IMG/VR virus record: IMGVR_UViG_3300023210_000011
Location: 32,001-96,000 of that record
DNA length: 64,000 nt
Reading direction: 5' to 3' (one strand)
DNA from: a virus
Made by a program: the position numbers and the translations under genes. Every line of letters starts with the position of its first letter. Position 1 is the stretch's first letter. This document shows positions 3,696 to 33,819 of the stretch, in pieces. Under the pieces are notes generated by a model, which made no database searches, had not been told where the DNA came from, and worked only from the letters and a program-made list of their open reading frames with translations.

Positions 3696-4229
3696 ATGTT
3701 CGCCCCCTATATGACTCGCTCGAAGAGCCTCGAGATGATCGAGGAGGAAAGCAGCGAGGACGGGCTGGCCCACAAGGTCACCTTTCGCGTCACAGATCTC
3801 ACTGCGTGGAACTCGCAGCTGGTCGATGTCCTGAAGTTCGCGGAGGACGAGGAAGACTACGTCTTGTCCGTGCGCAAGGAGTACTACGTCCTGGACGGCG
3901 CTCCTCGATTCGTCTGGAACATGATGATCTGGGGCGACTACGCCTCTGCTGCTCGAGATCTCGGTCCTCTGATGCAGATCGTTCCGCAAAGGGCGTCGCC
4001 CCCGGCACCCGCGGAGAAGGCGGCGGCCCCCGCTGCGCAGCGAGGCCGTGCATCGATCCTGGCCGTCCGGAAGATCGGCGTAGAGGATGACGGCACCACT
4101 CGGGTCGTGAAGAAAGTGCGGCTGCCGCACCGTCGCGGAAACCGCGACAACCCCGGAGAGGGGATCACCAAGAAGATGGGAGACAAGCGCATGGGCGCCT
4201 ATGTGTCTACTGCCAGTGGAGCGATCTGA
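3696..4229 (+). CDS. Hypothetical protein
   Basis: 177 aa; TGATG-coupled to the next gene. Confidence 0.8.
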   Translation: MFAPYMTRSKSLEMIEEESSEDGLAHKVTFRVTDLTAWNSQLVDVLKFAEDEEDYVLSVRKEYYVLDGAPRFVWNMMIWGDYASAARDLGPLMQIVPQRASPPAPAEKAAAPAAQRGRASILAVRKIGVEDDGTTRVVKKVRLPHRRGNRDNPGEGITKKMGDKRMGAYVSTASGAI

Positions 4230-4873
4230 TGGACATGAATCTCGCCACCCGCCGCTTCCACGCGAAGCTGGCGCAAGAGCAGGAAGCGCACGCAGCCGAG
4301 ATGGCCAAGCGCGCCAAGTACAAGATTCAGATCTGGTTCCGCTCCGACCGGTCCCTGCATCGTCCGATGACCTTCTCGATGTCCTTCTGGGAGTCTGGGA
4401 AGCGTCTGCACGGAGGAGGGGACGAGCTCCTCTTCATCTGTCGTCGGCACGCCGACGCCCCCAAGATCTCCCCCTTCGAGATGGCCAACGCCGCCAAGAA
4501 GAAGGGAAGCGACACGGGGTGTGGGGGGTTGATCTCCGGAGACAGCATCAGCCCAGAGGGGATCGTGGTCTGCCCCCACTGCTTCCTCCAGCACCGCACG
4601 GAGCAGATCGGGGACTCGATCTTCTACAGGGTCCAGGTGGGCCAGGCTGCGAAGATCCTCGCGGACTGGTGGCGCAAGGTCGGCAGCAACGCTGACATCT
4701 ACGCCAAGTACAGTCCCGAAGATCCACGTACGGTTATGATGAGCCGTACCTACTCTCCCCGCAAGGCGCGGGAGAGGAAGGGCCTGACCATCTACCCCCT
4801 GGCCAACATCCTCAAGGACACCCTCAACGGTGCGTCCCTCGAGTCCAGGATGAGGGCCTTCATCACGGCGTGA
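4229..4873 (+). CDS. Hypothetical protein, probable Zn-binding
   Basis: IC...GCGG...VCPHC ligand set; TGATG-coupled. Confidence 0.8.
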   Translation: MDMNLATRRFHAKLAQEQEAHAAEMAKRAKYKIQIWFRSDRSLHRPMTFSMSFWESGKRLHGGGDELLFICRRHADAPKISPFEMANAAKKKGSDTGCGGLISGDSISPEGIVVCPHCFLQHRTEQIGDSIFYRVQVGQAAKILADWWRKVGSNADIYAKYSPEDPRTVMMSRTYSPRKARERKGLTIYPLANILKDTLNGASLESRMRAFITA

Positions 4874-4876
4874 GAC

Positions 4877-7753
4877 ATGGACCACTTCTACCCGGAGTTC
4901 GAAAAGGAGGCGGACCTCGCCTCCTTCCTCGCCCCGGTAACGGAGAGAATCCAGGGCTTCTTCCAGTCCAAGGAGAAGAAGCGCGCGGCTCGCCGGGTGG
5001 AGGGGTTCCACAAGACGGAAGACAAGGACTGGGACGGGTTCACCGACCAGACTTCCCGCAAGAGCTTCGTCAAGCAGCTGGGGTCGGACACGCGCTCCGA
5101 TCCCAAGCTCCTGCAGTACGCCGACAACATGAACCGCCTCAAGACGGGCAAGCAGGTCGGAGAGGTCCAGGGAAGCCGGGGCACCTACAAGATCGTGAAG
5201 CTGCGGGGCCAGGATCGACTGGGGTGCTCCTGCAACGACTGGCGCTACAAGAAGTCCGTCGCGCAGCCTGGTGAGCAGGTGGACTGCAAGCACATCCGGC
5301 AGTTTCAGCAGCTGAAGGTTGCGGGTGTGAAGAAGCTCGAGCCCTCGCAGGGCGAGCGGGCTGAGTGGGAAAAGCGGGTAGCGCAGGCTGCGCTCTCGGG
5401 CGGGGACGGCGCCTCTCTGATGAAGACGGAAGAGGGCTTCGCAGCCTACACGCACCGCTCCCGTTCGAAGTTCTACCCAAGCCCCGCCTCCATTCCTCTT
5501 GGGAAGATCCGCTCCGTCGCGAAGACGGCGTCCTACCGCGAGGGCGGATCTTTCACGCACGACGGGCAGAAGTACTCTCTTGACGCCGCACTTCGATCCG
5601 CGGAGTCTCGCCCAGCCCTGCAGTTCTCGGTGGACGAGCTCAAGTGGGTGCTTCAGCATGACCGCCCCGACCCTTCGCGGGTACGAGCGGCAGACCTGCG
5701 TGCCCCTCTCTTGCTCGCACCCGACCGCAGGGGGCGGTGGACAGTCATTGATGGGCTGCACCGGCTCGCAAAGGCCGTGCGCGCAGGGAAAGACTCGGTC
5801 CCGGTCAAGATCTTGGCGCTGAGTGAGCTCCAGAAGACGGCCGCAGCAGTCACCTCCACGCTCAAGCCGCACCAGGAGCGGGTGCTGCGCAAGCTCGAGG
5901 ACAGCGACGGAGTCATCGTCGCGCACCGCGTAGGCGCCGGGAAGACGCTGACATCGATCGCCGCGGGCGTAGCGAGTGGCCGTCCCATGGAGGTCATCAC
6001 CCCTGCCTCCCTGACCAAGAACTACGAGAAGGAGCTCAAGAAGCACGTGAAGGGTGAGGTGAAGGCTCGTATCAGCTCCTACGAGAAGGCTGTACGGCGC
6101 GGAGCCAAAGAAGGGGAAGACAGCGTCGAGCCGGGATCTTTCCTGGTGCTCGACGAGGCGCACCGGCTGCGGAACGGAGGGACGCTAACCTCGAAGACCC
6201 TCCGTCCCGCGGCGCTGGAGGCCCACAAGCGGCTCCTCCTCACAGGCACCACGCTCTACAACCGCCCCTCTGATGTGGGGCCCCTGGCGAACGTGGCGGC
6301 GGGAGAGACAGTGCTCCCAGCGGACCCCACCAGGTTCGATCAGAAGTTCATCCAGGAGTCCGAGGTGTCCCCCGGGCTCTGGAACAGGCTGCGAGGGGTG
6401 AAGCCCGGTCTGCGGAAAGATCTGAAGAACGCCTCTCTTCTCCGCAAGGCGCTGTCAGGGCGCATTGATGTCCACTCAGAGGCATCGGCGGAGGACTTCC
6501 CTGAGCAGATCGAAGAGCGGATCGCAGTTCCGATGTCTCCGAAGCAGGAGCAGGTCTACGAGGCCGTGATGGGTGCCGCCCCGGCCCATGTGCGGAGGAA
6601 GATCCGCGCAGGGCTCCCGCCGTCGAAGCAGGAGTCCCGAATGTTGAACGCATTCACTACTGCAGGCCGGCAGGCTTCCCTCTCTCCGCGCCCCTATGTC
6701 GACGACATGACGAACGCGCAGGAGGCGGAGAACACCCCCAAGATCCAAGAGGCTGCGCGGCGGCTCCTGGACGCGCGGAAGACGGATCGAAGGTTCCGGG
6801 GGGTGGTGTACTCGAACTACATCGAGGCGGGCCTGAAGCCCTACGAGCGTGCCCTGAAGAGGCGGAAGATCAAGTTCAACACCCTCACGGGCAAGCTCAA
6901 CGCCAAGCAGAAAGCCCGCATGGTGGATGAGTACAACTCGGGGCAGACGCCCATCCTCCTCGTCTCGAGCTCGGGGACTGAGGGGCTGGACCTGAAGGGC
7001 ACGAAGATGGTCCAGGTCTTGGAGCCGCACTGGAACAACTCCAAGATCGACCAGGTGATTGGACGAGGAGTCCGGTACCAGAGCCACGCCCACCTCCCGA
7101 AGAAGGAGCGCAAGGTTCAGGTCCAGCGGTTCTACTCATCGCTGCCGAAGGGCTTCTTGGGCCGGAACAAGGGCAAGTCCACTGAGCAGTGGATCCAAGA
7201 TCGGGCGGACGACAAGACGCGCCTCTCCAACCAGCTGCGGGAAGTGTTCCAGCAGGCGAGTGACGAGCCCCCGCAGTCGCTACAGGGCCATGTGGCTCAG
7301 CGCATCCAGGAGCGCGCCCCCGGTTCCGGGTACGAGGTCGCCAAGATCCAGGCGCGCATCCCCAAGATGACGCTCCGCCCAGGAAAGACCTACCATGTGC
7401 CGCTCGCCAGAGGGCGGGGCTGGGTCGTGATAGGCGACATCGGTGGCCGGCACGTCGTGAAGACGGTCTTCGGTCCCAATATGCGGCCCCCGGGAGAGCG
7501 CGTGCTGGTCAAGCAGGCCCGCGCACCCCGCGACTACAAGAAGGAGTATGCGGAGTACCACGCCACCCCAGAGCAGCGGAAGAACCGTAGCCTCCGGAAC
7601 CAGGCCCGCCGGAAGGTGGGGCTAAGCAAAGGTGATCCCCGAGAGGTAGACCACAAGACTCCGCTCTCTCGTGGCGGCGGAAATGGCTCTGGGAACCTGC
7701 GTGCAGTTAGCTTCGAGCTCAACCGCAAAAAGTCAAACGGAGAAGCACGATGA
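4877..7753 (+). CDS. Multidomain protein: SWIM Zn finger + ParB/Srx-like + SNF2 helicase + putative BECR-type nuclease + HNH
   Basis: SWIM CSC...CKH (aa117-139). ParB-like VIDGLHRLAKA. SNF2 motifs HRVGAGKT, DEAH, LTGT, GTEGLDLKG, EPHWN...QVIGRGVR. HVAQRIQER...VVKTV module. C-terminal RDYKKEY...EVDHKTPLSRGG...NLRAVS...NR. Confidence 0.85.
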   Translation: MDHFYPEFEKEADLASFLAPVTERIQGFFQSKEKKRAARRVEGFHKTEDKDWDGFTDQTSRKSFVKQLGSDTRSDPKLLQYADNMNRLKTGKQVGEVQGSRGTYKIVKLRGQDRLGCSCNDWRYKKSVAQPGEQVDCKHIRQFQQLKVAGVKKLEPSQGERAEWEKRVAQAALSGGDGASLMKTEEGFAAYTHRSRSKFYPSPASIPLGKIRSVAKTASYREGGSFTHDGQKYSLDAALRSAESRPALQFSVDELKWVLQHDRPDPSRVRAADLRAPLLLAPDRRGRWTVIDGLHRLAKAVRAGKDSVPVKILALSELQKTAAAVTSTLKPHQERVLRKLEDSDGVIVAHRVGAGKTLTSIAAGVASGRPMEVITPASLTKNYEKELKKHVKGEVKARISSYEKAVRRGAKEGEDSVEPGSFLVLDEAHRLRNGGTLTSKTLRPAALEAHKRLLLTGTTLYNRPSDVGPLANVAAGETVLPADPTRFDQKFIQESEVSPGLWNRLRGVKPGLRKDLKNASLLRKALSGRIDVHSEASAEDFPEQIEERIAVPMSPKQEQVYEAVMGAAPAHVRRKIRAGLPPSKQESRMLNAFTTAGRQASLSPRPYVDDMTNAQEAENTPKIQEAARRLLDARKTDRRFRGVVYSNYIEAGLKPYERALKRRKIKFNTLTGKLNAKQKARMVDEYNSGQTPILLVSSSGTEGLDLKGTKMVQVLEPHWNNSKIDQVIGRGVRYQSHAHLPKKERKVQVQRFYSSLPKGFLGRNKGKSTEQWIQDRADDKTRLSNQLREVFQQASDEPPQSLQGHVAQRIQERAPGSGYEVAKIQARIPKMTLRPGKTYHVPLARGRGWVVIGDIGGRHVVKTVFGPNMRPPGERVLVKQARAPRDYKKEYAEYHATPEQRKNRSLRNQARRKVGLSKGDPREVDHKTPLSRGGGNGSGNLRAVSFELNRKKSNGEAR

Positions 7754-10599: not shown

Positions 10600-10764
10600 C
10601 TACCGCCCGCCCCAAGGGAGGAGAGTGCCTCCCCGGATCTCGCGTTCTACGCCGCACTCACAGCGGCACCACCAGGTCACTTGGCCGTTTTTCTTTCCGT
10701 GTCTTCGAAGTACAGACCACTTCCCATAGGCGTGCCCAGTTTCATCTTTCACTTTTGCTGCCAT
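10600..10764 (-). pseudogene. 54-aa remnant of an HNH/AP2-type homing endonuclease N-terminal domain, not in ORF track
   Basis: MAAKVKDETGHAYGKWSVLRRHGKKNGQVTWWCRCECGVEREIRGGTL matches the DLTGxRFGxLTVL...WxCxCxCG start of phage homing endonucleases, then stops. Locally AT-richer. Confidence 0.6.
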
Positions 10765-12052
10765 AGGTCAGACTCTCCTCGATGCACTCTTCTGCCTCCT
10801 TGTCGTCGCGAAATCGAACGACCCGAGGGAACTGAAGTGCGTTGGTGGCCTCCCCGTCGGCGATGAAGGTCCGGCTGGCGAATTGAATCTCTGCGACCAC
10901 AGGGAACACGCCAGGAGTGCTGAGCCAGTTCCTGTGGTCCTGGGTGAGTCCTCCTCCGCAGTCGCACAAGTAGACCAGTTCTCCGTCGGCGTCGTATTGG
11001 TGGAGGGCTACGGACCCTACCTTTCCACGGTTCTTCCCGCGGCCGTACTTGCCGACGCCCTGTTCGGGGTCCCATAGGCAGACAGCATCCAGTTCGAAGA
11101 CGGGCTTCAGCTTGCAGCAGGTGTTCGGGCGGTCGGGCTTGCCGCGCAGGTTGAAGGACTTCTCGCCGTAGGTGGAGTGCGGGTCCACGATGACGAAGCC
11201 CTCCCACCCCTGAGCGACCAGGGTGTTGCGGAGTCCCTCGACCCCCTTGTAGTCGCCTTCGATGAAGGTCTCCGGCGGATGTACGAACTGGCCGGAGAAC
11301 AGGTCCGCGTGGTCCAGGCGGAACCGGTACTGCATCTCTCCGAGCAGCTGGAGCCCGGCAGCCCAGGCCACGTCCCAGCAGATGAAGTGCAGGAACCCGG
11401 TCTTCTCCTGGATCTCGAGGGCCTTCGGAGTCAACGACTTCATCACCTTCGCGACCCGCCATCGATCATCCGCGTCAGGCCCGTTCACGATCTCGCCCAA
11501 CAGGATGGTGTTGTTCGGGATCTCGTCGTTCTCCTCGATCTCCGTGGCGATGTGGTCGAAGCGCTCGCGCCAGGTGTGCTGATCTTCGAGGTGGTGATTC
11601 GTCAGCATCCGTCGGCTGAAGAAGATCGCCTCCCCCTCGGAGTTCTTGACGATGACCATCATCTCGCCATCGTACTTCCGCACCGCCCACGCCTTCCCGT
11701 CCTCGACCATCTTCTCCATCTTCTTGTTCAGCGAGTTCTGAGGCTTGTAGAAGGACAGGTTGTCCACGATGCCGTGCTCGAAGGGGCTGTAGTCAGCGGT
11801 CTCCTCCAGCTTCGTGTCGTAGCCCTTCCGCATCTTCTTCGAGATCAGGCGATCCATCATGTTCTGCGCGTCTTGCTCAGCCGAGACCTCGTTGCTGCGC
11901 CCCGCGTGCTTGGCGGTTCCGTAGTCCGTGACCTCCTGCATCTTCCCGTCGAGCTGGCCGAAGCGCGTGTGGACCGCGTTCCCCTCGACAGCGATTTCCC
12001 AGACCCGCACAGCGCCGGTGCGCGCACGGTTATAGAGTGTGGTGTAGTTCAT
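10742..12052 (-). CDS. lig: ATP-dependent DNA ligase with N-terminal WGR-like domain
   Basis: Motif I KYDG, LLGEIV, FICWDV, GWEGFVI, KLKP; OB-fold LQFPRVVRFRDDK. N-terminal RVWEIAV...TRFGQLDG...KKMRKGY. GGAGG RBS. Confidence 0.9.
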   Translation of the reverse strand: MNYTTLYNRARTGAVRVWEIAVEGNAVHTRFGQLDGKMQEVTDYGTAKHAGRSNEVSAEQDAQNMMDRLISKKMRKGYDTKLEETADYSPFEHGIVDNLSFYKPQNSLNKKMEKMVEDGKAWAVRKYDGEMMVIVKNSEGEAIFFSRRMLTNHHLEDQHTWRERFDHIATEIEENDEIPNNTILLGEIVNGPDADDRWRVAKVMKSLTPKALEIQEKTGFLHFICWDVAWAAGLQLLGEMQYRFRLDHADLFSGQFVHPPETFIEGDYKGVEGLRNTLVAQGWEGFVIVDPHSTYGEKSFNLRGKPDRPNTCCKLKPVFELDAVCLWDPEQGVGKYGRGKNRGKVGSVALHQYDADGELVYLCDCGGGLTQDHRNWLSTPGVFPVVAEIQFASRTFIADGEATNALQFPRVVRFRDDKEAEECIEESLTYGSKSER

Positions 12053-21650: not shown

Positions 21651-21893
21651 ATGATCGACCCGAACATCTCTGCGTTCTTCTTCGACGAGCTCACGAAGGA
21701 GGCCCTGAGTGGCAAACACCTCGGCGGAGCAGCTCTCGTCGGCGGCGGCGTCATCGCCGGTGCCGTGGGCAAGGATGCTCTCCAGGACCGCAAGGAGGGT
21801 CGCGTCATCCGCGCGCAGCGCGAGATGCAGCAGCGTCAGATGATGCAGGCCATGAAGCGTCGGAAGTCGGGCGCCTCCCAGGGGGGCTACTGA
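21651..21893 (+). CDS. Small protein with FFDELTKEA leader and Gly-rich hydrophobic helix
   Basis: MIDPNISAFFFDELTKEA-LSGKHLGGAALVGGGVIAGAVG. Confidence 0.8.
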   Translation: MIDPNISAFFFDELTKEALSGKHLGGAALVGGGVIAGAVGKDALQDRKEGRVIRAQREMQQRQMMQAMKRRKSGASQGGY

Positions 21894-22135
21894 TGGCCAA
21901 CGACCTCTTCCAGCGAGACCATCACCTGTCTCACGCCGCAGAGATGTCGAACGTGGCCAACACGAACGAGATCTTGGATGATCTCTTCACCCGACGTGAC
22001 GATCTGGCCGCCCGGTCCTACCGGCAGCTCTCGGGCCTGTTCTCCGGCAAGGAGCACTACGGGCGCAACACCCGCTTGGGCATGTCTGCTCGCGAGGCCG
22101 GTCGCCTGGTGAACCGGGCATTCTCGGATGGCTGA
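21893..22135 (+). CDS. Hypothetical protein (80 aa)
   Basis: TGATG-coupled start MANDLFQRD...; the track ORF 21593-22135 is over-extended. Confidence 0.7.
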   Translation: MANDLFQRDHHLSHAAEMSNVANTNEILDDLFTRRDDLAARSYRQLSGLFSGKEHYGRNTRLGMSAREAGRLVNRAFSDG

Positions 22136-22940
22136 CCTCCGGAGCCGACTCGAGAAGATCGCGGCAAAGGACCCGTACCAGTTCCCGACTTCTTGGACGT
22201 CCGGGCAGCCGATGTCGTCTCGGGCCGCTCAAGATCTGGACCTGTGGCGGCAGTGGAAGACCTCCAAGGAAGACCCAGAGAAGCTGGCTCCGCTCCTCAC
22301 GTCGCTCAATCCAGTCATCTCTTCGCAGGTGAACCGGCACCGGGCCCCGAGGATCTACAAGCCTGCGATCGAGGCCCACGCGCGCACCCTGGCAGTCCAG
22401 GCACTCCGTCGGTATGACCCGACCCGGAAGGCTGCGGTCGCATCGCACGTCCAGAACAACCTCAAGGGTCTCAACCGCTACGTGAAGAAGCATCAGAACT
22501 TCACGCGGATCGTAGAGGCACAGGCCAACAAGATCGGGCCGTACTCGCGGGCCAAGGCTGTGCTCGAGGAGGAGCTGGGCAGGGAGCCCACCACCTTCGA
22601 GCTCGCAGACAAGCTCAAGATGAGCCCGAAGAAGGTCGAGCGCCTGGCGAAAGAGATCCGGCCGGACATCTTCAACCTGCCGGCAGTCGGAGAAGATGCG
22701 TTCGAGTCCTCCCCCTTCGAGGAGGAGTCCCCCAGGCACCGCGAGGTCATCGCGATGCTGCCCTACGAGCTCACAACCGACGAGACAGCAGTGTTCAACT
22801 ACCTCTTCGGTAAGGGAGGGAAGCGCAAGATGGAGGTGATGAACGACATCGCGCGTGAACTCGGGTGGTCTGCGTCCAAGGTCTCCCAGGTCAAGAACTC
22901 GATCTCGAAGAAGTACCGCGACTACCTGAGAAGCTTCTGA
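22128..22940 (+). CDS. Sigma70-family RNA polymerase sigma factor (regions 2-4)
   Basis: Region 2 ALRRYDPTRKAAVASHV, region 3 LEEELGREPTTFELADKLKMSPKKV, region 4 HTH MNDIARELGWSASKVSQV. Confidence 0.85.
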   Translation: MADLRSRLEKIAAKDPYQFPTSWTSGQPMSSRAAQDLDLWRQWKTSKEDPEKLAPLLTSLNPVISSQVNRHRAPRIYKPAIEAHARTLAVQALRRYDPTRKAAVASHVQNNLKGLNRYVKKHQNFTRIVEAQANKIGPYSRAKAVLEEELGREPTTFELADKLKMSPKKVERLAKEIRPDIFNLPAVGEDAFESSPFEEESPRHREVIAMLPYELTTDETAVFNYLFGKGGKRKMEVMNDIARELGWSASKVSQVKNSISKKYRDYLRSF

Positions 22941-27087: not shown

Positions 27088-30000
27088 ATGGCCAACACCG
27101 GTACGCAGGCTGATCAGATCCGTGATCTCCTCGTGGAGCTCCTCGAGGCGTACGATCCGACGCTCAATCTGGCCCCGGGTGGGGCGGTGTACGACCGTGT
27201 TGTCGCTCCGCTCTACTCCTCCCTCGGTGTGGACGCGTTCGATACGGACCTCGAGCTCTTCCTCCTGACCCGACTGCGCCAGGAGTTCCCGAGTCTGCCT
27301 GCTGAGCAGGGCGACGCCATCGTTGACCTGGTCATTCGTCCTCTGCAGCTCCTTCTTGAGGGATTCAAGCGGGAACTGCAGATCATCCGACGGGGGCAGT
27401 CCGTCCGCAACTCGGGTCAGATGCGGATCCAGGATGCAGAAGACCTGGCTGCCAACTTCTTCGTGAGCCGCCGAGAGGGGTCCCGGGCGGGAGGCACCGT
27501 CCGGATCTTCTTCGCGAACCCCACGTTCGTCTCGCTGCTGGCTTCGACCGAGCTCCGTACCTCTTCAGGGCTGGTCTTCTACCCGCGCGTTCCTCAGTTC
27601 TTCCGCCCAGAGGTGATGGCTGCTCAGCGTTCGGGGCAGCTCTACTACCTCGATGTGGGCGTAGTCGCGGCAGAAGCCGGCGAGGAGTACAACGTCGAAG
27701 AGGGTGCGATCTCCTCGGTCATCGGGCTCGCCTCTGCCGTGCGCGCCACCAACCGGTTCGCATTCAACGGGGGCAGTTACCAGGAGACGGCCGAGCAGCT
27801 CCTCCAGAGGACGCAGACCTCTCTCACGGAGCGCAGCCTGAACACCCGCCGCGGAGTTCGCGCTCGGCTGTTCTCGGAGTTTCCCACAATCCGGAATATG
27901 GAAGTCGTCGGATTCGGGGATCCGGAGATGCAGCGGGATGTGATCACAGGATCCGGCGGCGGAGATGTGATCACGTCGGGCATGAGCTTCGTTCTGGGTC
28001 GCTACGTGCTCCTGCTGTCGATGTTCGAGAATCGTGGCCGGGATGGGGCTCGTCGAATCCGAGCCGGGAGCCGGATCGAGCTCAACTTCTGGAACTTCCT
28101 CTACGGAACGCGCCCGGAGGAGGCGAACCAGTTCTTCGGGGTCGACGAGGTGGTCTACGAGAGCTCGGAGGACCTGGTTGGGCTGCCCACGATCTACCTG
28201 CTGAAGCTGGACGCGGTTCCTGATGTCGATCCCCCTTCCGTCAGCCTGATCCCTGGCCTCCTTCCTGGGGTGTTCGCTGCTGCGTACGACCGGGCGGAGA
28301 TCCGGATCTCAGACATTCCCGGGGGCATCACGAACCCCGACGCGAATGAGCAGATCATCATCCAGGACGGAGAGGTCCACATCGGCGGGCACTACGACGT
28401 GTACGTCCGCCCGTCTGCGTCCAGTTCGACCTCTACGCAGTACGCCCCGCAGGCCAGCGAGGTTGCGGTGTACGAGGGAGAGGAGCTCACCCTCTCTGGG
28501 CAGATCGATGCAACGGCTCTGCGCGACTACGGGGCCCTCAAGAACAAGGTGCATTCGCGGCTCCGGATCCACTACCGGCCCATCTCAGGAACGCTCACCG
28601 AGACCGAGGTGGTCAACCTCTTCGACGGCTCGAGCATCGAGGAGGACACCGGGGCCTACCTCCTGGATCTGAACACCGCAGAGCGGTACCTGGACCTGTG
28701 CTGCCTGACGTCCGACAACGACTGGTCTTCCGGCCAGATCAAGGGCGCGACCAGTGGTGCCGTCGTCGCCATCTCGAGCGTGGAGCAGGTCATCTGGGAG
28801 GACGTTGGGGTCTCTCGTGGGATGACCCTCAATGTGCTCACGGGACCTGATGCCGGGGTCTACAAGATCTTGGATGTGCGGGGTGTTGAGCTGGTGCTCG
28901 ACCTGGACATGACTGCGTTGTCGTCTGATGTGCGATTCCGCATCATCGACGAGACCGTAGTGGATGCGTTCTCGCCCCAGTCCCCGGTCTACCCGTTCAA
29001 CGCGGACTCTGCGACGGGACTCCGCACGACCATTGGGTCTGCGACGGTCCGGGTCTCCGAAGACCTGCAGCAGTTCGGAGTCGCCACCGGGCACACCTTC
29101 GAGATCCTCGATGGGGGCAACCAGGGGGTCTACCAGATCACCGGATTCGGCGCGAACGGGGGACGTAGCCCCATCCTGAACTCCGAGATGCGGTCTACCG
29201 ACTCCAGTGCGTCCTTCAAGATCTACAGCTCTTCCGGTGGCCTCACCCGGCCGCTGGTCCGGGTGGCTCCCGGTGGCGTGGCGCTGCTCGATACGAGCGG
29301 GCAGGACACGGGCTACACCGTGCCTCCGGCCCTCCCGGTCGGGGCCGCTGCGTACGAAGGCTTCTCCGGCGCTCGGATCACGTACAGCGGGCTCAACGGG
29401 TTCGTGCTGGCAGATGCGGGCACCTCCTGGGCGCCGCAGAGCCATACGCGGCTGCAGGTCTACGACATCGACTCCGCAACAGGTGAGCTGACGAACCCGT
29501 CTGCTGTGAGTCCGCGGTCCCCGGACGGTACGATCACGCAGAAGGACATGAAGACGATCTCCCAGTACTCTGGGCGTCCCGGCACTTGCTACACGGACGA
29601 GTGCCTCCCCAGCGATGACGACTACGTCGCTGTGATGTCTCTTGTGGAGCAGGGGCTGGGTTCTGGGTCTTTCCAGACGCACCTGGCGATTGACCTGCCC
29701 ACGGCGGCCACCGACTTCCTGCAGTCGCTCCGCGATTGGATGGTGGAGCTCACCAGCATCTCAGGCTTCGACCTGGGCGCAGACTTCGAGGCGCTGGCGA
29801 CGCTGTTCGCTCCGTTCACCCTCGACCCAGTGGATGCGGCCAACCCGATCATCGCCCAGTACGAGGTGTTGATCCCGAAGGCCATCTTCGATGGCTGCAA
29901 CAACGTCTTCATCGCCGCCCCAGAGTTCGACTGGAACAAGGCCTTCTCGGGATCCACGTTCGAAGATGCGATGGACGACTACAACAACGGAGAGCTGCGC

Positions 30001-33000
30001 AACACGCCTGCTGCGCTCTCAAACGCGAAGTCGGGGGACGTCCTCACCATCGATGTGGGAGTGAACGCCGGTTCATACGTCATCGACAAGGTCTATACCT
30101 ACAAGATCTACCACGGCGGGAGCATCGTCTCGACCGATCCGTCGTCGTCCGCCGACGACTACTTGGATGCCCGCGTGGCTTACACGTTCTCCGTGGTCAC
30201 GGTCAAGGGTGAGTTCCCGGTGGCGCCCCTTGAGGGCCTGGCGGACTTCTTCTCCACGAGGACCGCATCTCCCCTGGCCTTCCCGTCAGCTCCGAGCTTC
30301 GACGTGGAGAGCAAGATCACGACGGGCCCCTCAGCGGGCAAGGAGCTGGGACCGTGGGAAGTGGTCCAGGAGTCCTTCACCTGGCTGTTCGCGACTCTGG
30401 GCAGCGCCGGTTTCGACGTCCCCAGCGAGTTCGTCCTCGACGCCGGGGCGGTCCTGAAGAGCTTGACCAAGGGCTTCTTCGGCTCCTACCAGGTGGGCAG
30501 GCCGACGGCAGAGCAGATCGTACGGCTCTTCTTCACCGAGCCCACCTCCGTCACGACGTTCGGCCCCACCAGCTGCGCGAACTACTCCTGGAATGAGGAG
30601 GTGACCAGCCCGGCAGATGTCACCGGAGGGGACATCACCCTCCCAGTGGCCAGCAGTGAGGGCCTCGAGGCGGCGCTCACGTTCGTGGGTGCAGCTTCAC
30701 GTACCACCCTGACCGGCACAGTGACCGCTGCCATCGCGGCGCTGACCTCCTTCACTGAGCTGGCAACGGCGCTCCAAGAGCTGCTGGACCCGGACGAAGA
30801 TCTGGTCCGGTTCACGGGTGCCGAGTCTTCCTGGGGAAGCACCACCGGATCGATCACCGTGAGTCCGATTGAGCGCGGGGTGGGGACCACTCTGACAATC
30901 GCTGCAGAGGACCGTGAAGACGGATTCCGCCACTTCGGCTTCTCAGACGAGGAGGGAGGCGGAGTGCTCCAGATTCCGAACTCGGTGGCGTTCCCTGCCG
31001 CGGGCTTCCTGTCTCTGAGCGCAGAGATCGATACGACCCCGTTCGGGGTCTATTACGTCGAAGATGACGTAGTGATCGTGGTGGGAGAGACTCTCACGAT
31101 CACCCAGACTCCTGGGGACTTCGACATCACGCCGCTGGCGGTGATGCGCGTAGACGATCCGGTGTTCGGCGGCATCAAGACGGTGGTTCTGTTCGACCCG
31201 GCCAGCTTCGCGGTGCTGGACCCGGGGGACACTCCGCAGGTCACTCTGGGCTCGGGTACCTACGACATCCTGAGTGCGTCGTCGGTTCTTGGCATCAACA
31301 CCACCTCCGGCGCCACCTACCTGTACCTGGGGTACTCGGCTCTCGAAGAGACCCTGCTCACTGGAATGCAGGCATCCATCGTCTCCGCGATTCTGGCCGT
31401 GGCCATCTCCGACGGGATTCTGGGTGCGGCGACGAGCTACGAGTCCTGGGAGCAGGAGCTGATCACAGGGTTCAGCGTGGCGGGAGACGGCCTCGACCTT
31501 GAGATCTCCGTGGAGTCAGAATCGGACTGGATGGTCTTCGAGTTCCGGACCAAGCTCTACGACGGGACCACCCTCCTGTCGGTGAACATCGACACCTCCG
31601 CAGCCCTCACAGGGACGCTGACCCTCACGGAGATCTTCACCCTTGAGGTCACGCAGCTGGATGCCACGACGCTGACTGCCGCGCTGGCAGACAGTGGGGC
31701 CTCTGCGCTTGAGTTCGAGCAGGCCATTCTGGCGAACATCGCCAACGCCGATGACCTGGCGAGTGCGCTCAACGCCCTCAATGTGGCGGGAGATCTCGGT
31801 CAGTTCGTCTCCCTGTCTGCCGACGGGGGTGATCCTCAGGACGAGCTCGTCCTGCGGGTGCTGGCCGCTGACCAACAGGATGCGGTTCTGGAAGCTGCCA
31901 CGTCGCTCTGCTTCGACGCTGCTACGCCGCACACCACTCTCGAGAGCGTGGTGTGGACTGCTGACGGAACTTCAGAGCCTGGAGAACTCCAGGAAGGAGT
32001 TCTGCATCCGAATGTGCCCACGCTGTTCAGTGTCCCCGCAGGCACCACCGAGCTCCAGTTCGTGGCTTCGGGCACTGAGAGCCCGCGAGAGGTGTTCCCG
32101 GGAGCGTCCACGACCGGGCAGTCCACCCCCATGGAGCTGCCGCGGGATGCTCGGCTGTCCGCGCACTACGACGACGCGGGGTCCTTCCGGGCCATCGCAT
32201 CCGACCCATCCCTTCCCGCATTCGTCCTTTCCGACGTGCATGTCGGGGAAGATTTCCTCCGCGTCTTCGAGCAGAAGATCCTGGCGGAAGTCGTCAGTTC
32301 TGCTTCTGAGGCCGTCCCGGAGAAGGCCGACCGGGTCATCGCTGTGGCGACCGAGGCCGGCTCCAACATCGTCAGCCTCCTGGGGACTGAGGACTACTCC
32401 TTCCTGTCTCCCACGTCTGAGCTGGACCGCGATGCTCTCCGTGAGGGGGACATGCTGTTCACGGAGGAAGGGGACCTGGCGTCGGGCTACCAGATCATCG
32501 ATGTGGCCGAGAACCAGCTCACCCTGGATCGGCCCATGCCCTTCACCACGGGGCAGGTCTACCGGTCCGGAAACGAGGGCATGGTCGAGGAGACAGACAT
32601 CTTCGTGGACCCCACAGGGCCGTTCATCTCGGACGATGTGGGTCGGTATGTCACCATCTACGCGTCGAATTTCCCTGGAATGGACGGCAGCTACCAGATC
32701 TTGGAGGTCACCAACGCCTCTACGGTAGTCCTCGACATGGACGCATTCCCCGTGACCGAGACCGGGCTGCACTGGGCGGTGGTCCGTGCGCCCGTAGACG
32801 AGCTCGGGGACTCTGAGATCGACGGGTTCAACGAGATGCACGGCCTCCGGCCGGTGCGGCTCTACTCGGGGATCCCCTCTGAGTGGCGGATTGTGGGGGT
32901 TCACCCCTCGATCAGCCGGCAGTCCTCGTACCTCACCTGCTCGTACAGCGACGCGTACTTCCCATCTCCGTACGAGGTCCAGCGCAACCTGGCCGCCTAC

Positions 33001-33819
33001 GGGCCGATTCGAGGGGTCAACCAGCCCTACGCGGTGATCCGGAGGGCCACCAAGCACCTCTCATCGACCGAGATGAAGTCTCAGGGGCTTGATAGGGGCC
33101 TGTACTACGCAGATGTGCGGGCGTTCTCCCTGGGTGGAGACCCGGTCTTCAACATCCCGAAGGACACGTCCCTCACTCCTCTGTTCGGCACCTACCACTC
33201 CGATGGCTACCGCCTCGAGGTGGAGGACCCGCTGTTCTCGTACAGCTCTGCGGAGCGGTGCAAGATCCGCATGAGTCCTCGATTCCTGCCCGCAGACCTC
33301 ACGGACATCGAAGAGAACAAGATCTCTCTGGAGCGGTCCAGGTACCAGGTCACCCATGAGTTCTCGTCTCTGGTGGCGCAGGTGCAGGCTCTCCTGCTGT
33401 CCCGGTCTGACCGCACGCTCTGCGCAGATCCCCTCGCGCGCCACTTCCTGCCCTCCTACGTCTACGTGGACATCCGGGCCCTGGGCGGCGACTCCGAGAG
33501 CATGGCGGCGGACATCTACGCCTTCATCGACAGCCTCGAACCCGAAGAGGTCCTCGATGTCTCGCGGCTGGAGAAGTTCCTCCACTCCAACGACGTGTCC
33601 TCCTACGAGCACCCGGTGGTCATCCAGATCGTGACGCACGATCTCTACCGGCGGCGAGTCCTGACCAGGTCCACGGACACGATCGGCAGCTCCTTGGATG
33701 AGGCAGACTTCTCCGGAAGCCACCGCACGACGTTCTACATCCCGGGCCCTCCCAGCTTCTCCGATGGCTCCCGAGAGGGGGCAGAGCGCATCTTGATCTC
33801 GGGCAGGACCAATGGCTGA
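27088..33819 (+). CDS. Giant baseplate wedge protein, gpJ/gp6-like (2243 aa)
   Basis: FFVSRREGSRAGGTVRIFF...VAAEAGEEYNV...NRFAFNGGSYQETAEQLLQR matches the baseplate J N-terminus; J-like C-terminal module; follows the gp25-like gene. Confidence 0.8.
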   Translation: MANTGTQADQIRDLLVELLEAYDPTLNLAPGGAVYDRVVAPLYSSLGVDAFDTDLELFLLTRLRQEFPSLPAEQGDAIVDLVIRPLQLLLEGFKRELQIIRRGQSVRNSGQMRIQDAEDLAANFFVSRREGSRAGGTVRIFFANPTFVSLLASTELRTSSGLVFYPRVPQFFRPEVMAAQRSGQLYYLDVGVVAAEAGEEYNVEEGAISSVIGLASAVRATNRFAFNGGSYQETAEQLLQRTQTSLTERSLNTRRGVRARLFSEFPTIRNMEVVGFGDPEMQRDVITGSGGGDVITSGMSFVLGRYVLLLSMFENRGRDGARRIRAGSRIELNFWNFLYGTRPEEANQFFGVDEVVYESSEDLVGLPTIYLLKLDAVPDVDPPSVSLIPGLLPGVFAAAYDRAEIRISDIPGGITNPDANEQIIIQDGEVHIGGHYDVYVRPSASSSTSTQYAPQASEVAVYEGEELTLSGQIDATALRDYGALKNKVHSRLRIHYRPISGTLTETEVVNLFDGSSIEEDTGAYLLDLNTAERYLDLCCLTSDNDWSSGQIKGATSGAVVAISSVEQVIWEDVGVSRGMTLNVLTGPDAGVYKILDVRGVELVLDLDMTALSSDVRFRIIDETVVDAFSPQSPVYPFNADSATGLRTTIGSATVRVSEDLQQFGVATGHTFEILDGGNQGVYQITGFGANGGRSPILNSEMRSTDSSASFKIYSSSGGLTRPLVRVAPGGVALLDTSGQDTGYTVPPALPVGAAAYEGFSGARITYSGLNGFVLADAGTSWAPQSHTRLQVYDIDSATGELTNPSAVSPRSPDGTITQKDMKTISQYSGRPGTCYTDECLPSDDDYVAVMSLVEQGLGSGSFQTHLAIDLPTAATDFLQSLRDWMVELTSISGFDLGADFEALATLFAPFTLDPVDAANPIIAQYEVLIPKAIFDGCNNVFIAAPEFDWNKAFSGSTFEDAMDDYNNGELRNTPAALSNAKSGDVLTIDVGVNAGSYVIDKVYTYKIYHGGSIVSTDPSSSADDYLDARVAYTFSVVTVKGEFPVAPLEGLADFFSTRTASPLAFPSAPSFDVESKITTGPSAGKELGPWEVVQESFTWLFATLGSAGFDVPSEFVLDAGAVLKSLTKGFFGSYQVGRPTAEQIVRLFFTEPTSVTTFGPTSCANYSWNEEVTSPADVTGGDITLPVASSEGLEAALTFVGAASRTTLTGTVTAAIAALTSFTELATALQELLDPDEDLVRFTGAESSWGSTTGSITVSPIERGVGTTLTIAAEDREDGFRHFGFSDEEGGGVLQIPNSVAFPAAGFLSLSAEIDTTPFGVYYVEDDVVIVVGETLTITQTPGDFDITPLAVMRVDDPVFGGIKTVVLFDPASFAVLDPGDTPQVTLGSGTYDILSASSVLGINTTSGATYLYLGYSALEETLLTGMQASIVSAILAVAISDGILGAATSYESWEQELITGFSVAGDGLDLEISVESESDWMVFEFRTKLYDGTTLLSVNIDTSAALTGTLTLTEIFTLEVTQLDATTLTAALADSGASALEFEQAILANIANADDLASALNALNVAGDLGQFVSLSADGGDPQDELVLRVLAADQQDAVLEAATSLCFDAATPHTTLESVVWTADGTSEPGELQEGVLHPNVPTLFSVPAGTTELQFVASGTESPREVFPGASTTGQSTPMELPRDARLSAHYDDAGSFRAIASDPSLPAFVLSDVHVGEDFLRVFEQKILAEVVSSASEAVPEKADRVIAVATEAGSNIVSLLGTEDYSFLSPTSELDRDALREGDMLFTEEGDLASGYQIIDVAENQLTLDRPMPFTTGQVYRSGNEGMVEETDIFVDPTGPFISDDVGRYVTIYASNFPGMDGSYQILEVTNASTVVLDMDAFPVTETGLHWAVVRAPVDELGDSEIDGFNEMHGLRPVRLYSGIPSEWRIVGVHPSISRQSSYLTCSYSDAYFPSPYEVQRNLAAYGPIRGVNQPYAVIRRATKHLSSTEMKSQGLDRGLYYADVRAFSLGGDPVFNIPKDTSLTPLFGTYHSDGYRLEVEDPLFSYSSAERCKIRMSPRFLPADLTDIEENKISLERSRYQVTHEFSSLVAQVQALLLSRSDRTLCADPLARHFLPSYVYVDIRALGGDSESMAADIYAFIDSLEPEEVLDVSRLEKFLHSNDVSSYEHPVVIQIVTHDLYRRRVLTRSTDTIGSSLDEADFSGSHRTTFYIPGPPSFSDGSREGAERILISGRTNG

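Follow-up and report, generated by a model that had tools for sequence, protein, structure and literature searches.

The window analyzed here is a stretch of 64,000 nucleotides, positions 32,001 to 96,000 of the IMG/VR virus record IMGVR_UViG_3300023210_000011. An open reading frame (ORF) at 4877–7753 of the window encodes a 958-amino-acid chain. Comparison with its relatives demonstrated a mosaic protein family, a short K-x-A motif at the junctions of its modules, and the occurrence of the same motif in head proteins of the phage and in a protein with a protease fold. Because this linker motif also marks the capsid protein, the likely scaffold, and the putative protease, the chain probably enters the head and is then cut into separate enzymes. 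The reading we favor, and hold to be reasonably probable, is that of a virion-packaged polyvalent polyprotein cut after alanine by the prohead protease. That the chain is packaged and cleaved, and what its pieces do, is inferred from this comparative evidence.

The frame is unbroken on the plus strand from the ATG at 4877 to the stop at 7751–7753. Its 958-residue product has a computed mass of 107.0 kDa and an isoelectric point of 10.1, and it is on record in identical form on three contigs. The source record, from an uncultured virus, spans 131,435 bp with a completeness of about 70% (CheckV) and a GC content of about 63%. A megablast search with 25 kb against 50,697 phage records returned no close relative, and most genes neighboring the ORF had no match in Pfam and PHROG. 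A preliminary description of this DNA had read the chain as five unrelated nucleic-acid domains separated by K-x-A linkers. The ORF and all the strings that it quoted were located at the residues given (FEKEA, K10; KRA, K35; LKVAG, K147; AKTAS, K216; QKTAA, K320; KNA, K517; FQQAS, Q792; VKQAR, K879). The chain is divided as follows, in window coordinates, with an arrow at each predicted cut.

4877..7753, plus strand: 958-residue mosaic ORF, putative polyprotein (frame and identical records)
4877..4912, plus strand: acidic 12-residue leader ending in K10-E-A12, a candidate N-terminal site (predicted local distance difference test score, pLDDT, below 50 at residues 1–16)
4967..5323, plus strand: module A (residues 31–149), with a SWIM-like zinc finger and the end site K147-V-A149↓G (homologues, model)
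5225–5293, plus strand: SWIM-like CxC...CxH finger, C117 to H139, in module A (pattern)
5324..5530, plus strand: module B or spacer (residues 150–218), end site K216-T-A218↓S (mostly disordered in the model)
5531..5842, plus strand: module C (residues 219–322), ParB/sulfiredoxin-like, with a DGLHR motif and the end site K320-T-A322↓A (phrog_17560, phmmer)
5843..7270, plus strand: module D (residues 323–798), SNF2-family ATPase (Pfam, structure)
7250–7258, plus strand: degenerate site F-Q-Q-A794↓S in module D
7286..7519, plus strand: module E (residues 804–881), a small alpha/beta domain, end site K879-Q-A881↓R (homologues, model)
7520..7750, plus strand: module F (residues 882–958), a probable HNH nuclease (PHROG, Pfam below the cut-off)

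Module Junctions across the Family

Searches yielded more than 100 relatives of the chain, and 52 proteins made up the family set. BLAST similarity blocks from 100+ relatives ended on the query at residues 146–150, 208–216, 318–332, 799–804, and 875–885, in agreement with the sites named in the preliminary description. Some relatives have no SNF2 module, some carry other modules instead, and some hold module A internally or at the C-terminus; across the 52 proteins, modules were deleted, inserted, and reordered. Among 236 strong similarity breakpoints, 57% lay at most 5 residues from a K-x-A and 72% at most 8 residues, compared with 9% and 13% at random. The control motifs E-x-A, K-x-L, and R-x-A were at the random level or lower. 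The preliminary description had proposed asking of homologues whether the modules shuffle while K-x-A stays at the junctions, and breakpoints, segmentation, and the 52 relatives all showed this behavior.

The motif itself required a narrower definition than the one first proposed. K-x-A was found at the junctions, but in its generic form it was not enriched in the 52 proteins (351 copies versus 394 in shuffles), whereas K[TE]A[AGS] occurred 108 times versus 10.2 ± 3.2 in shuffles. The true motif, judged from these sequences, is K-x-A with a small residue or Arg in the next position. Its P2 position is free (T, E, V, Q, L, I, or K), while K and A are fixed. When the 52 proteins were cut in silico at K-x-A[AGSRE], the pieces fell into 70 module clusters, of which 29 recurred; the modules appeared in many different orders, and several had constant lengths of 76, 76, 104–105, 134, and 481–483 residues. 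Module C measured 104–105 residues in 14 relatives, module E 76 residues in 20, and module F 76 residues in 28. Homologous pieces matched end to end in 31% of pairs, compared with 1.6–2% when the cuts were shifted by 15–40 residues and 3–12% for other motifs.

Retention differed from site to site. K-x-A was retained at K879 in 28 of 31 aligned relatives and at K320 in 16 of 27, with K-E-G-A variants in addition; module A ends in relatives in Q-M-[SN]-K-T-A-A. At the leader site K10-E-A12, K-x-A was present in 5 of 11 aligned relatives. A variable stretch (residues 13–30) follows the leader, and similarity breakpoints fall at residues 27–31. The predicted structure had a mean pLDDT of 80.3, with values below 50 at residues 1–16, 151–156, 175–229, and 880–885, and four of the sites fall within these low-confidence stretches or next to them. 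KRA35, KNA517, and QKA678 lie inside confidently modeled structure. Two of these had been listed as off-boundary sites, which they are, with different conservation. KNA517 was ruled out as a site, being conserved in 0 of 19 relatives. KRA35 is conserved and was nevertheless ruled out as a junction, as it sits within the confident first helix of module A.

These data bear on whether the borders were hit by luck. In a basic protein encoded by a genome of 63% GC, Lys and Ala are frequent, plain K-x-A is not enriched, and two of the sites in this protein are off-border. Within this single protein, K-x-A placement indeed does not appear to exceed chance; within the family, it does. The breakpoint, segmentation, and conservation tests reject chance, which is refuted at the family level and which we hold to be a negligible prospect.

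One lineage has its gene divided at a junction. On TARA contig L006 (769–5704), the chain is encoded by two ORFs with an 8-nt overlap, split exactly at the ParB/SNF2 junction, and the flanking 214-residue gene and the minus-strand DNA ligase gene are in the same order as in the window. The split is not a sequencing slip because three different proteins start there. Modules that recombine exactly at the motif could also point to a recombination scar, in which nucleotide microhomology drives exchange and the peptide has no role. The codons, however, vary between sites and have at most about 8 nt in common, P2 is free while K and A are fixed, and the motif also occurs in head proteins that are not mosaic. 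We regard a scar as very improbable. The idea of a recombination hotspot was rejected on the same observation of differing codons. Because the codons differ at the sites, what is under selection is the peptide rather than the nucleotide sequence.

The Motif in the Head Genes

The motif was unevenly distributed over the phage. K[TE]A[AGS] occurred 18 times in its proteome versus about 4 expected, mostly in a few late proteins. For K.A[AGS], the head and RNA polymerase cluster (record 96–131 kb) held 35 copies versus 14.6 expected and the operon of the 958-residue chain 7 versus 3.5; other regions were at or below expectation (left arm, 4 versus 5.3; tail cluster, 4 versus 6.6; replication cluster, 3 versus 4.3). 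Salmonella phage Arash (OQ632216) is the closest cultured relative, with terminase, a protease homologue, and an SNF2 module in common. The genes concerned are listed below, the first six in coordinates of the full record and the last two in window coordinates.

Record 101896–108222: 2108-residue protein, residues 1488–2067 of which match gp216, the beta' subunit of the Arash RNA polymerase
Record 119605–121320: large terminase
Record 124403–126340: protease-fold protein, 645 residues (fold, and a weak PHROG match to "head maturation protease")
Record 126318–127421: acidic protein with repeats such as FEK[AT]AAAEG and 6–7 K-x-A sites, the gene after that of the 645-residue protein
Record 127421–128053: 210-residue protein that combines a DnaJ J-domain (Pfam, 1.3e-7) with a glycine zipper and carries the motif twice, as VKEA↓S and IKTA↓A
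Record 130401–131435: major capsid protein, running off the record end (phrog_2522, E value 1.9e-5)
21651..21893, plus strand: 80-residue protein, leader ...FFFDELTKEA↓L followed by a Gly-rich stretch
22128..22940, plus strand: sigma-factor-like protein (phrog_351), leader MADLRSRLEKIA↓A

The 645-residue protein has homologues in Arash (gp222, annotated "structural protein") and phage G. Its metagenomic relatives number more than 160, and inteins (Hint/LAGLIDADG in Pfam) interrupt some of them. Two sites are conserved in its family (90+ homologues), K-T-A-S at residue 37 and K-x-A-S at 293, and many members have a third at about 397–401. Its model (pLDDT 81.9) is disordered at residues 1–33, 293–302, and 396–410, matching the site positions. 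Residues 51–259 aligned to the T4 prohead protease gp21 (5jbl) in VIA-align with a Z score of 9.0 and a root-mean-square deviation of 3.0 over 134 residues. The next best were about 30 herpesvirus proteases, at Z 5–7.5 and 8–16% identity. Foldseek with the whole model also placed herpesvirus and T4 proteases in the top rows, but at E values no better than 0.05, and the family profile against PDB sequences gave noise only. From the N-terminus, the layout of the protein is a domain of the gp21/assemblin fold, then a K-T-A site of the release type, then a helical part at the C-terminus.

The acidic repeat protein encoded next is likely a scaffold. The capsid protein carries T-K-T-A↓A-A-S at residues 22–28, just ahead of its profile match, and the site is retained as K[TEV]AA in 21 IMG/VR relatives; greedy ORF calling takes the wrong strand for this gene at the record end. 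The same pattern was observed in Arash. In gp222, the protease homologue, the site reads G-G-L-T-K-Q-A↓A (residue 30), and in gp226, the capsid protein, it reads L-V-K-E-A↓G (residue 27). Its head genes gp220–gp226 (144–152 kb) hold 7, 2, 3, 6, 2, 5, and 1 copies of K-x-A[SAG], respectively, with gp220 (7 sites) and gp223 (6 sites) being scaffold-like, while the tail genes downstream of gp226 mostly hold none. The most economical reading would be that K-x-A↓[S/A/G/R] is the cleavage code of the prohead protease of this clade.

Further late proteins carry the motif in their N-terminal parts, as do the 80-residue and sigma-factor-like proteins listed above. Because the Arash sigma factor was found in virions and these leaders end in K-x-A, a packaged transcription kit is possible. 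The 2108-residue protein is possibly a single-chain beta-beta' polymerase.

Another protease, either a host enzyme or a peptidase module of the family itself (papain-like C92/NlpC or HExxH), could instead cut the chain in the cytoplasm or after injection. C92/NlpC-P60 modules occur in 7 of the 52 relatives and HELGH-type motifs in some, and autoprocessing has been proposed for polyvalent proteins that bear a metallopeptidase (MPTase) domain (Iyer et al., PMC5512222). The present chain, on the other hand, has no peptidase module, and the motif is common to head-assembly proteins and enriched only in the head cluster and the operon of the chain. We therefore consider this explanation improbable.

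Domain Identities

The SNF2 assignment is solid, and it is the sole module above a curated threshold. Pfam returned SNF2-rel_dom at 2e-18 (67 bits; cut-off 24.9) and Helicase_C at 3e-14 (53.6 bits; cut-off 23.5), and the AlphaFold2 (AF2) model of residues 322–798 aligned to the INO80, SNF2h, and SRCAP motors with Z scores of 28–31. Residues 323–794 amount to 472 residues, the length of the stand-alone virion helicase gp217 of Arash.

The remaining modules were less clear, and Pfam runs on modules A, B, C, and E singly gave no matches. Residues 219–322 are probably a ParB/sulfiredoxin (Srx)-like domain: phmmer matched SbnI (E value 0.0045) and ParB (0.09), and tblastn found phage genes annotated as ParB together with a "structural protein" of PA5oct. 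Residues 882–958 probably form an HNH nuclease, with a PHROG endonuclease VII match (1.5e-5), a D-H...N...N pattern, and Pfam HNH/HNH_4 at E 0.01 and 16 bits, below the cut-off. The SWIM-like finger displays the CxC...CxH arrangement (C117, C119, C137, H139) and is modeled as three strands and a helix, without a profile match in Pfam or elsewhere. Searches of PDB sequences with the HNH part and with module A gave no meaningful match. Module E (residues 804–881) had been called a putative RNase module; the only structural likeness found for it is a weak one to RelE/ParE. Of the five proposed nucleic-acid domains, SNF2 exceeds its threshold, the ParB-like and HNH domains are probable, SWIM is a pattern match, and none of the four modules other than SNF2 is over threshold. 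No peptidase or methylase module was found in the chain. Among the 52 relatives, Pfam identified SNF2 in 20, C92/NlpC (NlpC-P60) in 7, P-loop kinases in 5, GNAT in 3, ligase in 2, and NUDIX in 1.

Proposed Mechanism and Alternatives

Under the favored reading, the chain would be made late and loaded into proheads, where the phage's own putative prohead protease (record 124403–126340) would cut it after Ala. The predicted fragments are basic, at about 15.8, 7.4, 11.6, 62.0 (or 52.5 + 9.5), and 8.7 kDa, and cuts at A322 and A794 would release a 472-residue SNF2 piece. Leaving the capsid along with the DNA, the pieces would act early, that of SNF2 probably as a partner of the virion RNA polymerase of the phage and the nuclease-like ones probably against host or rival DNA or against host defenses.

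The preliminary description had likewise proposed a packaged cassette cut into separate enzymes. Module shuffling, the ORFs split at a junction, the motif in head proteins, and the Arash SNF2 protein in virions agree with this proposal, while packaging and cleavage are its predicted part. In Arash, gp217 is a stand-alone SNF2 protein of 472 residues, 38% identical to the SNF2 module, and its gene adjoins that of RNA polymerase beta'. Liquid chromatography followed by mass spectrometry (LC-MS) of Arash virions recorded gp217 as abundant, with 38 unique peptides and 1148 spectra, close to the 1333 for the capsid protein (PMC10585845).

Several observations weigh against the polyprotein. The case for this phage is built on sequence comparison and predicted structure. 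Homologous positions are not independent, and for this reason the raw motif counts overstate the signal. The SNF2/E junction is helical in the model (QQA792 lies within helix 769–796) and has no Lys, 19 of 21 relatives reading x-[RQ]-A-[ST] there, and K320 sits at the end of a helix modeled with intermediate confidence. The protease was assigned from fold and position; Pfam models S77, S78, and ClpP had no match on the genome, and the invariant H137/H138 and S194 are candidate catalytic residues proposed from conservation. About 44 kb separate the gene of the chain from the head genes. Arash gp217 lacks a K-x-A leader and is packaged nonetheless, and because the Arash virion preparation listed 116 proteins (PMC10585845), some carry-over is possible. 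Certain polyvalent proteins, such as N4 virion RNA polymerase (vRNAP) and TraC1, are delivered uncut (PMC5512222).

An alternative is an uncut 107-kDa SNF2-nuclease machine, packaged or cytoplasmic, in which K-x-A would be a conserved, swap-tolerant linker or module end. In its favor, full-length delivery is known for several polyvalent proteins (PMC5512222), fusions of SNF2 with SWIM or with a nuclease are common, and the SNF2/E junction is helical and lacks Lys. An uncut enzyme leaves unexplained why unrelated modules all end in the motif, why one lineage has its gene split at a junction, and why the motif occurs in the linkers of the protease-fold protein, at the N-terminus of the capsid protein, and in scaffold-like repeats. 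We consider it unlikely, though a serious possibility.

The polyprotein reading can be extended to a plug-and-play cargo system, to which we would give an even chance. Any K-x-A-ended module arriving at the locus would be loaded as part of the chain, freed by the capsid protease, and injected, giving a rapidly shuffled arsenal, and the protease would be Ala↓Ser-specific with a UL26-like layout. If correct, the phage would employ a genuine polyprotein strategy for enzymes, of a kind so far associated with RNA viruses and with large DNA viruses of eukaryotes. Polyvalent proteins are common among phages. If the capsid protease reads a code at the junctions, this would account for the delivery of several independent enzymes from a single gene and for the free swapping of modules, and virion cargo could be predicted from sequence alone. 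Arash, a cultured phage with the motif in its head proteins and with existing LC-MS data on its virions, allows a direct test of the cleavage code, although not of the polyprotein.

Neighboring Genes

Two genes flank the ORF directly.

4229..4873, plus strand: 214-residue gene directly upstream, with a gene of equal length at the same position in TARA contig L006
7750..8688, plus strand: 312-residue gene directly downstream, overlapping the ORF by 4 nt, with K53-V-A↓G in the N-terminal part of its product

The downstream gene product is, by its motif, a possible second substrate. An ATP-dependent DNA ligase gene (10742–12052, minus strand) lies inside the rightward gene block and is syntenic in the TARA relative. 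At 27088–33819 (plus strand), a 2243-residue protein with an N-terminal Baseplate_J domain is encoded, followed by ORFs of 771, 1587, and 2218 residues with no family matches.

Comparison with Known Systems

The chain resembles the polyvalent proteins of phages and conjugative elements described in 2017 by Iyer, Burroughs, Anand, de Souza, and Aravind, with P1 DarB and DdrB as archetypes (PMC5512222). Those proteins likewise combine many unrelated enzyme domains per chain, from a repertoire that includes SNF2, ParB/Srx, papain-like peptidase, NUDIX, and GNAT, show extreme mosaicism among relatives, and are predicted to be packaged and injected. A polyvalent protein is recognized by at least two disparate domains in one phage polypeptide, here SNF2, the ParB/Srx-like and HNH-like domains, and the putative zinc finger, and by mosaic architectures, here 70 clusters in 52 proteins, with C92/NlpC, P-loop kinases, GNAT, ligase, and NUDIX. 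This chain, by contrast, has no peptidase or methylase module. In the account of Iyer et al., processing is by built-in peptidases (MPTase), and no junction motif or link to a prohead protease is described (PMC5512222). A limited word-based literature search returned no phage enzyme polyprotein cut at every junction by a head protease, although one may exist.

Virion superfamily 2 (SF2) helicases alongside virion RNA polymerases are discussed for Erwinia phage RAY (gp131) and phiKZ (gp203) (bioRxiv 10.1101/2023.02.24.529968). Whereas these and Arash gp217 stand alone, the helicase here is one bead in a chain.

Prohead-protease substrates offer a second comparison. In T4 they are capsid-targeting leaders, internal proteins, and Alt. 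The gp245 protease of the phiKZ-like phage SPN3US recognizes A-x-E, and its known cuts, self-cleavage excepted, remove N-terminal propeptides (PMC10052503). As in those phages, one short motif marks the capsid, protease, scaffold or propeptides, and ejected proteins, and the predicted fold points to an encoded protease of the gp21/assemblin type; the site motif is the same in the capsid protein, scaffold, and protease, also in Arash. Unlike in those phages, which cut after Glu, the cut here would follow Ala and would separate several enzymes. The parallel first drawn with T4 gp21 and phiKZ gp175, which both cut after Glu, holds for the fold (Z 9.0 to gp21) but not for the implied specificity, which is nearer to the herpesvirus site VQA-S (PMC4498786).

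The R and M sites of pseudorabies virus (PrV) UL26, such as YLQA-T and VQA-S, have Ala at P1 and Ser or Thr at P1' (PMC4498786). UL26 also shares the layout of an N-terminal assemblin fold, a release site, and a helical C-terminal part, but the likeness is at the fold level (Z 5–7.5, 8–16% identity), and Lys at P3 is a fixed position in the phage motif. A specificity of this kind, cutting behind Ala and ahead of Ser, Ala, or Gly with Lys at P3, would, together with the protease-scaffold fusion, strengthen the connection between capsid maturation in phages and in herpesviruses. To our knowledge, no enzyme polyprotein is a protease substrate in herpesviruses. The pp220 and pp62 polyproteins of African swine fever virus (ASFV) are cut at Gly-Gly-X by a viral protease and yield structural core-shell proteins. 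As proposed here, a double-stranded DNA virus makes particle components as a chain that is cut at a short motif. The protease class differs, and the ASFV products are structural proteins, whereas those proposed for this phage are swappable enzymes.

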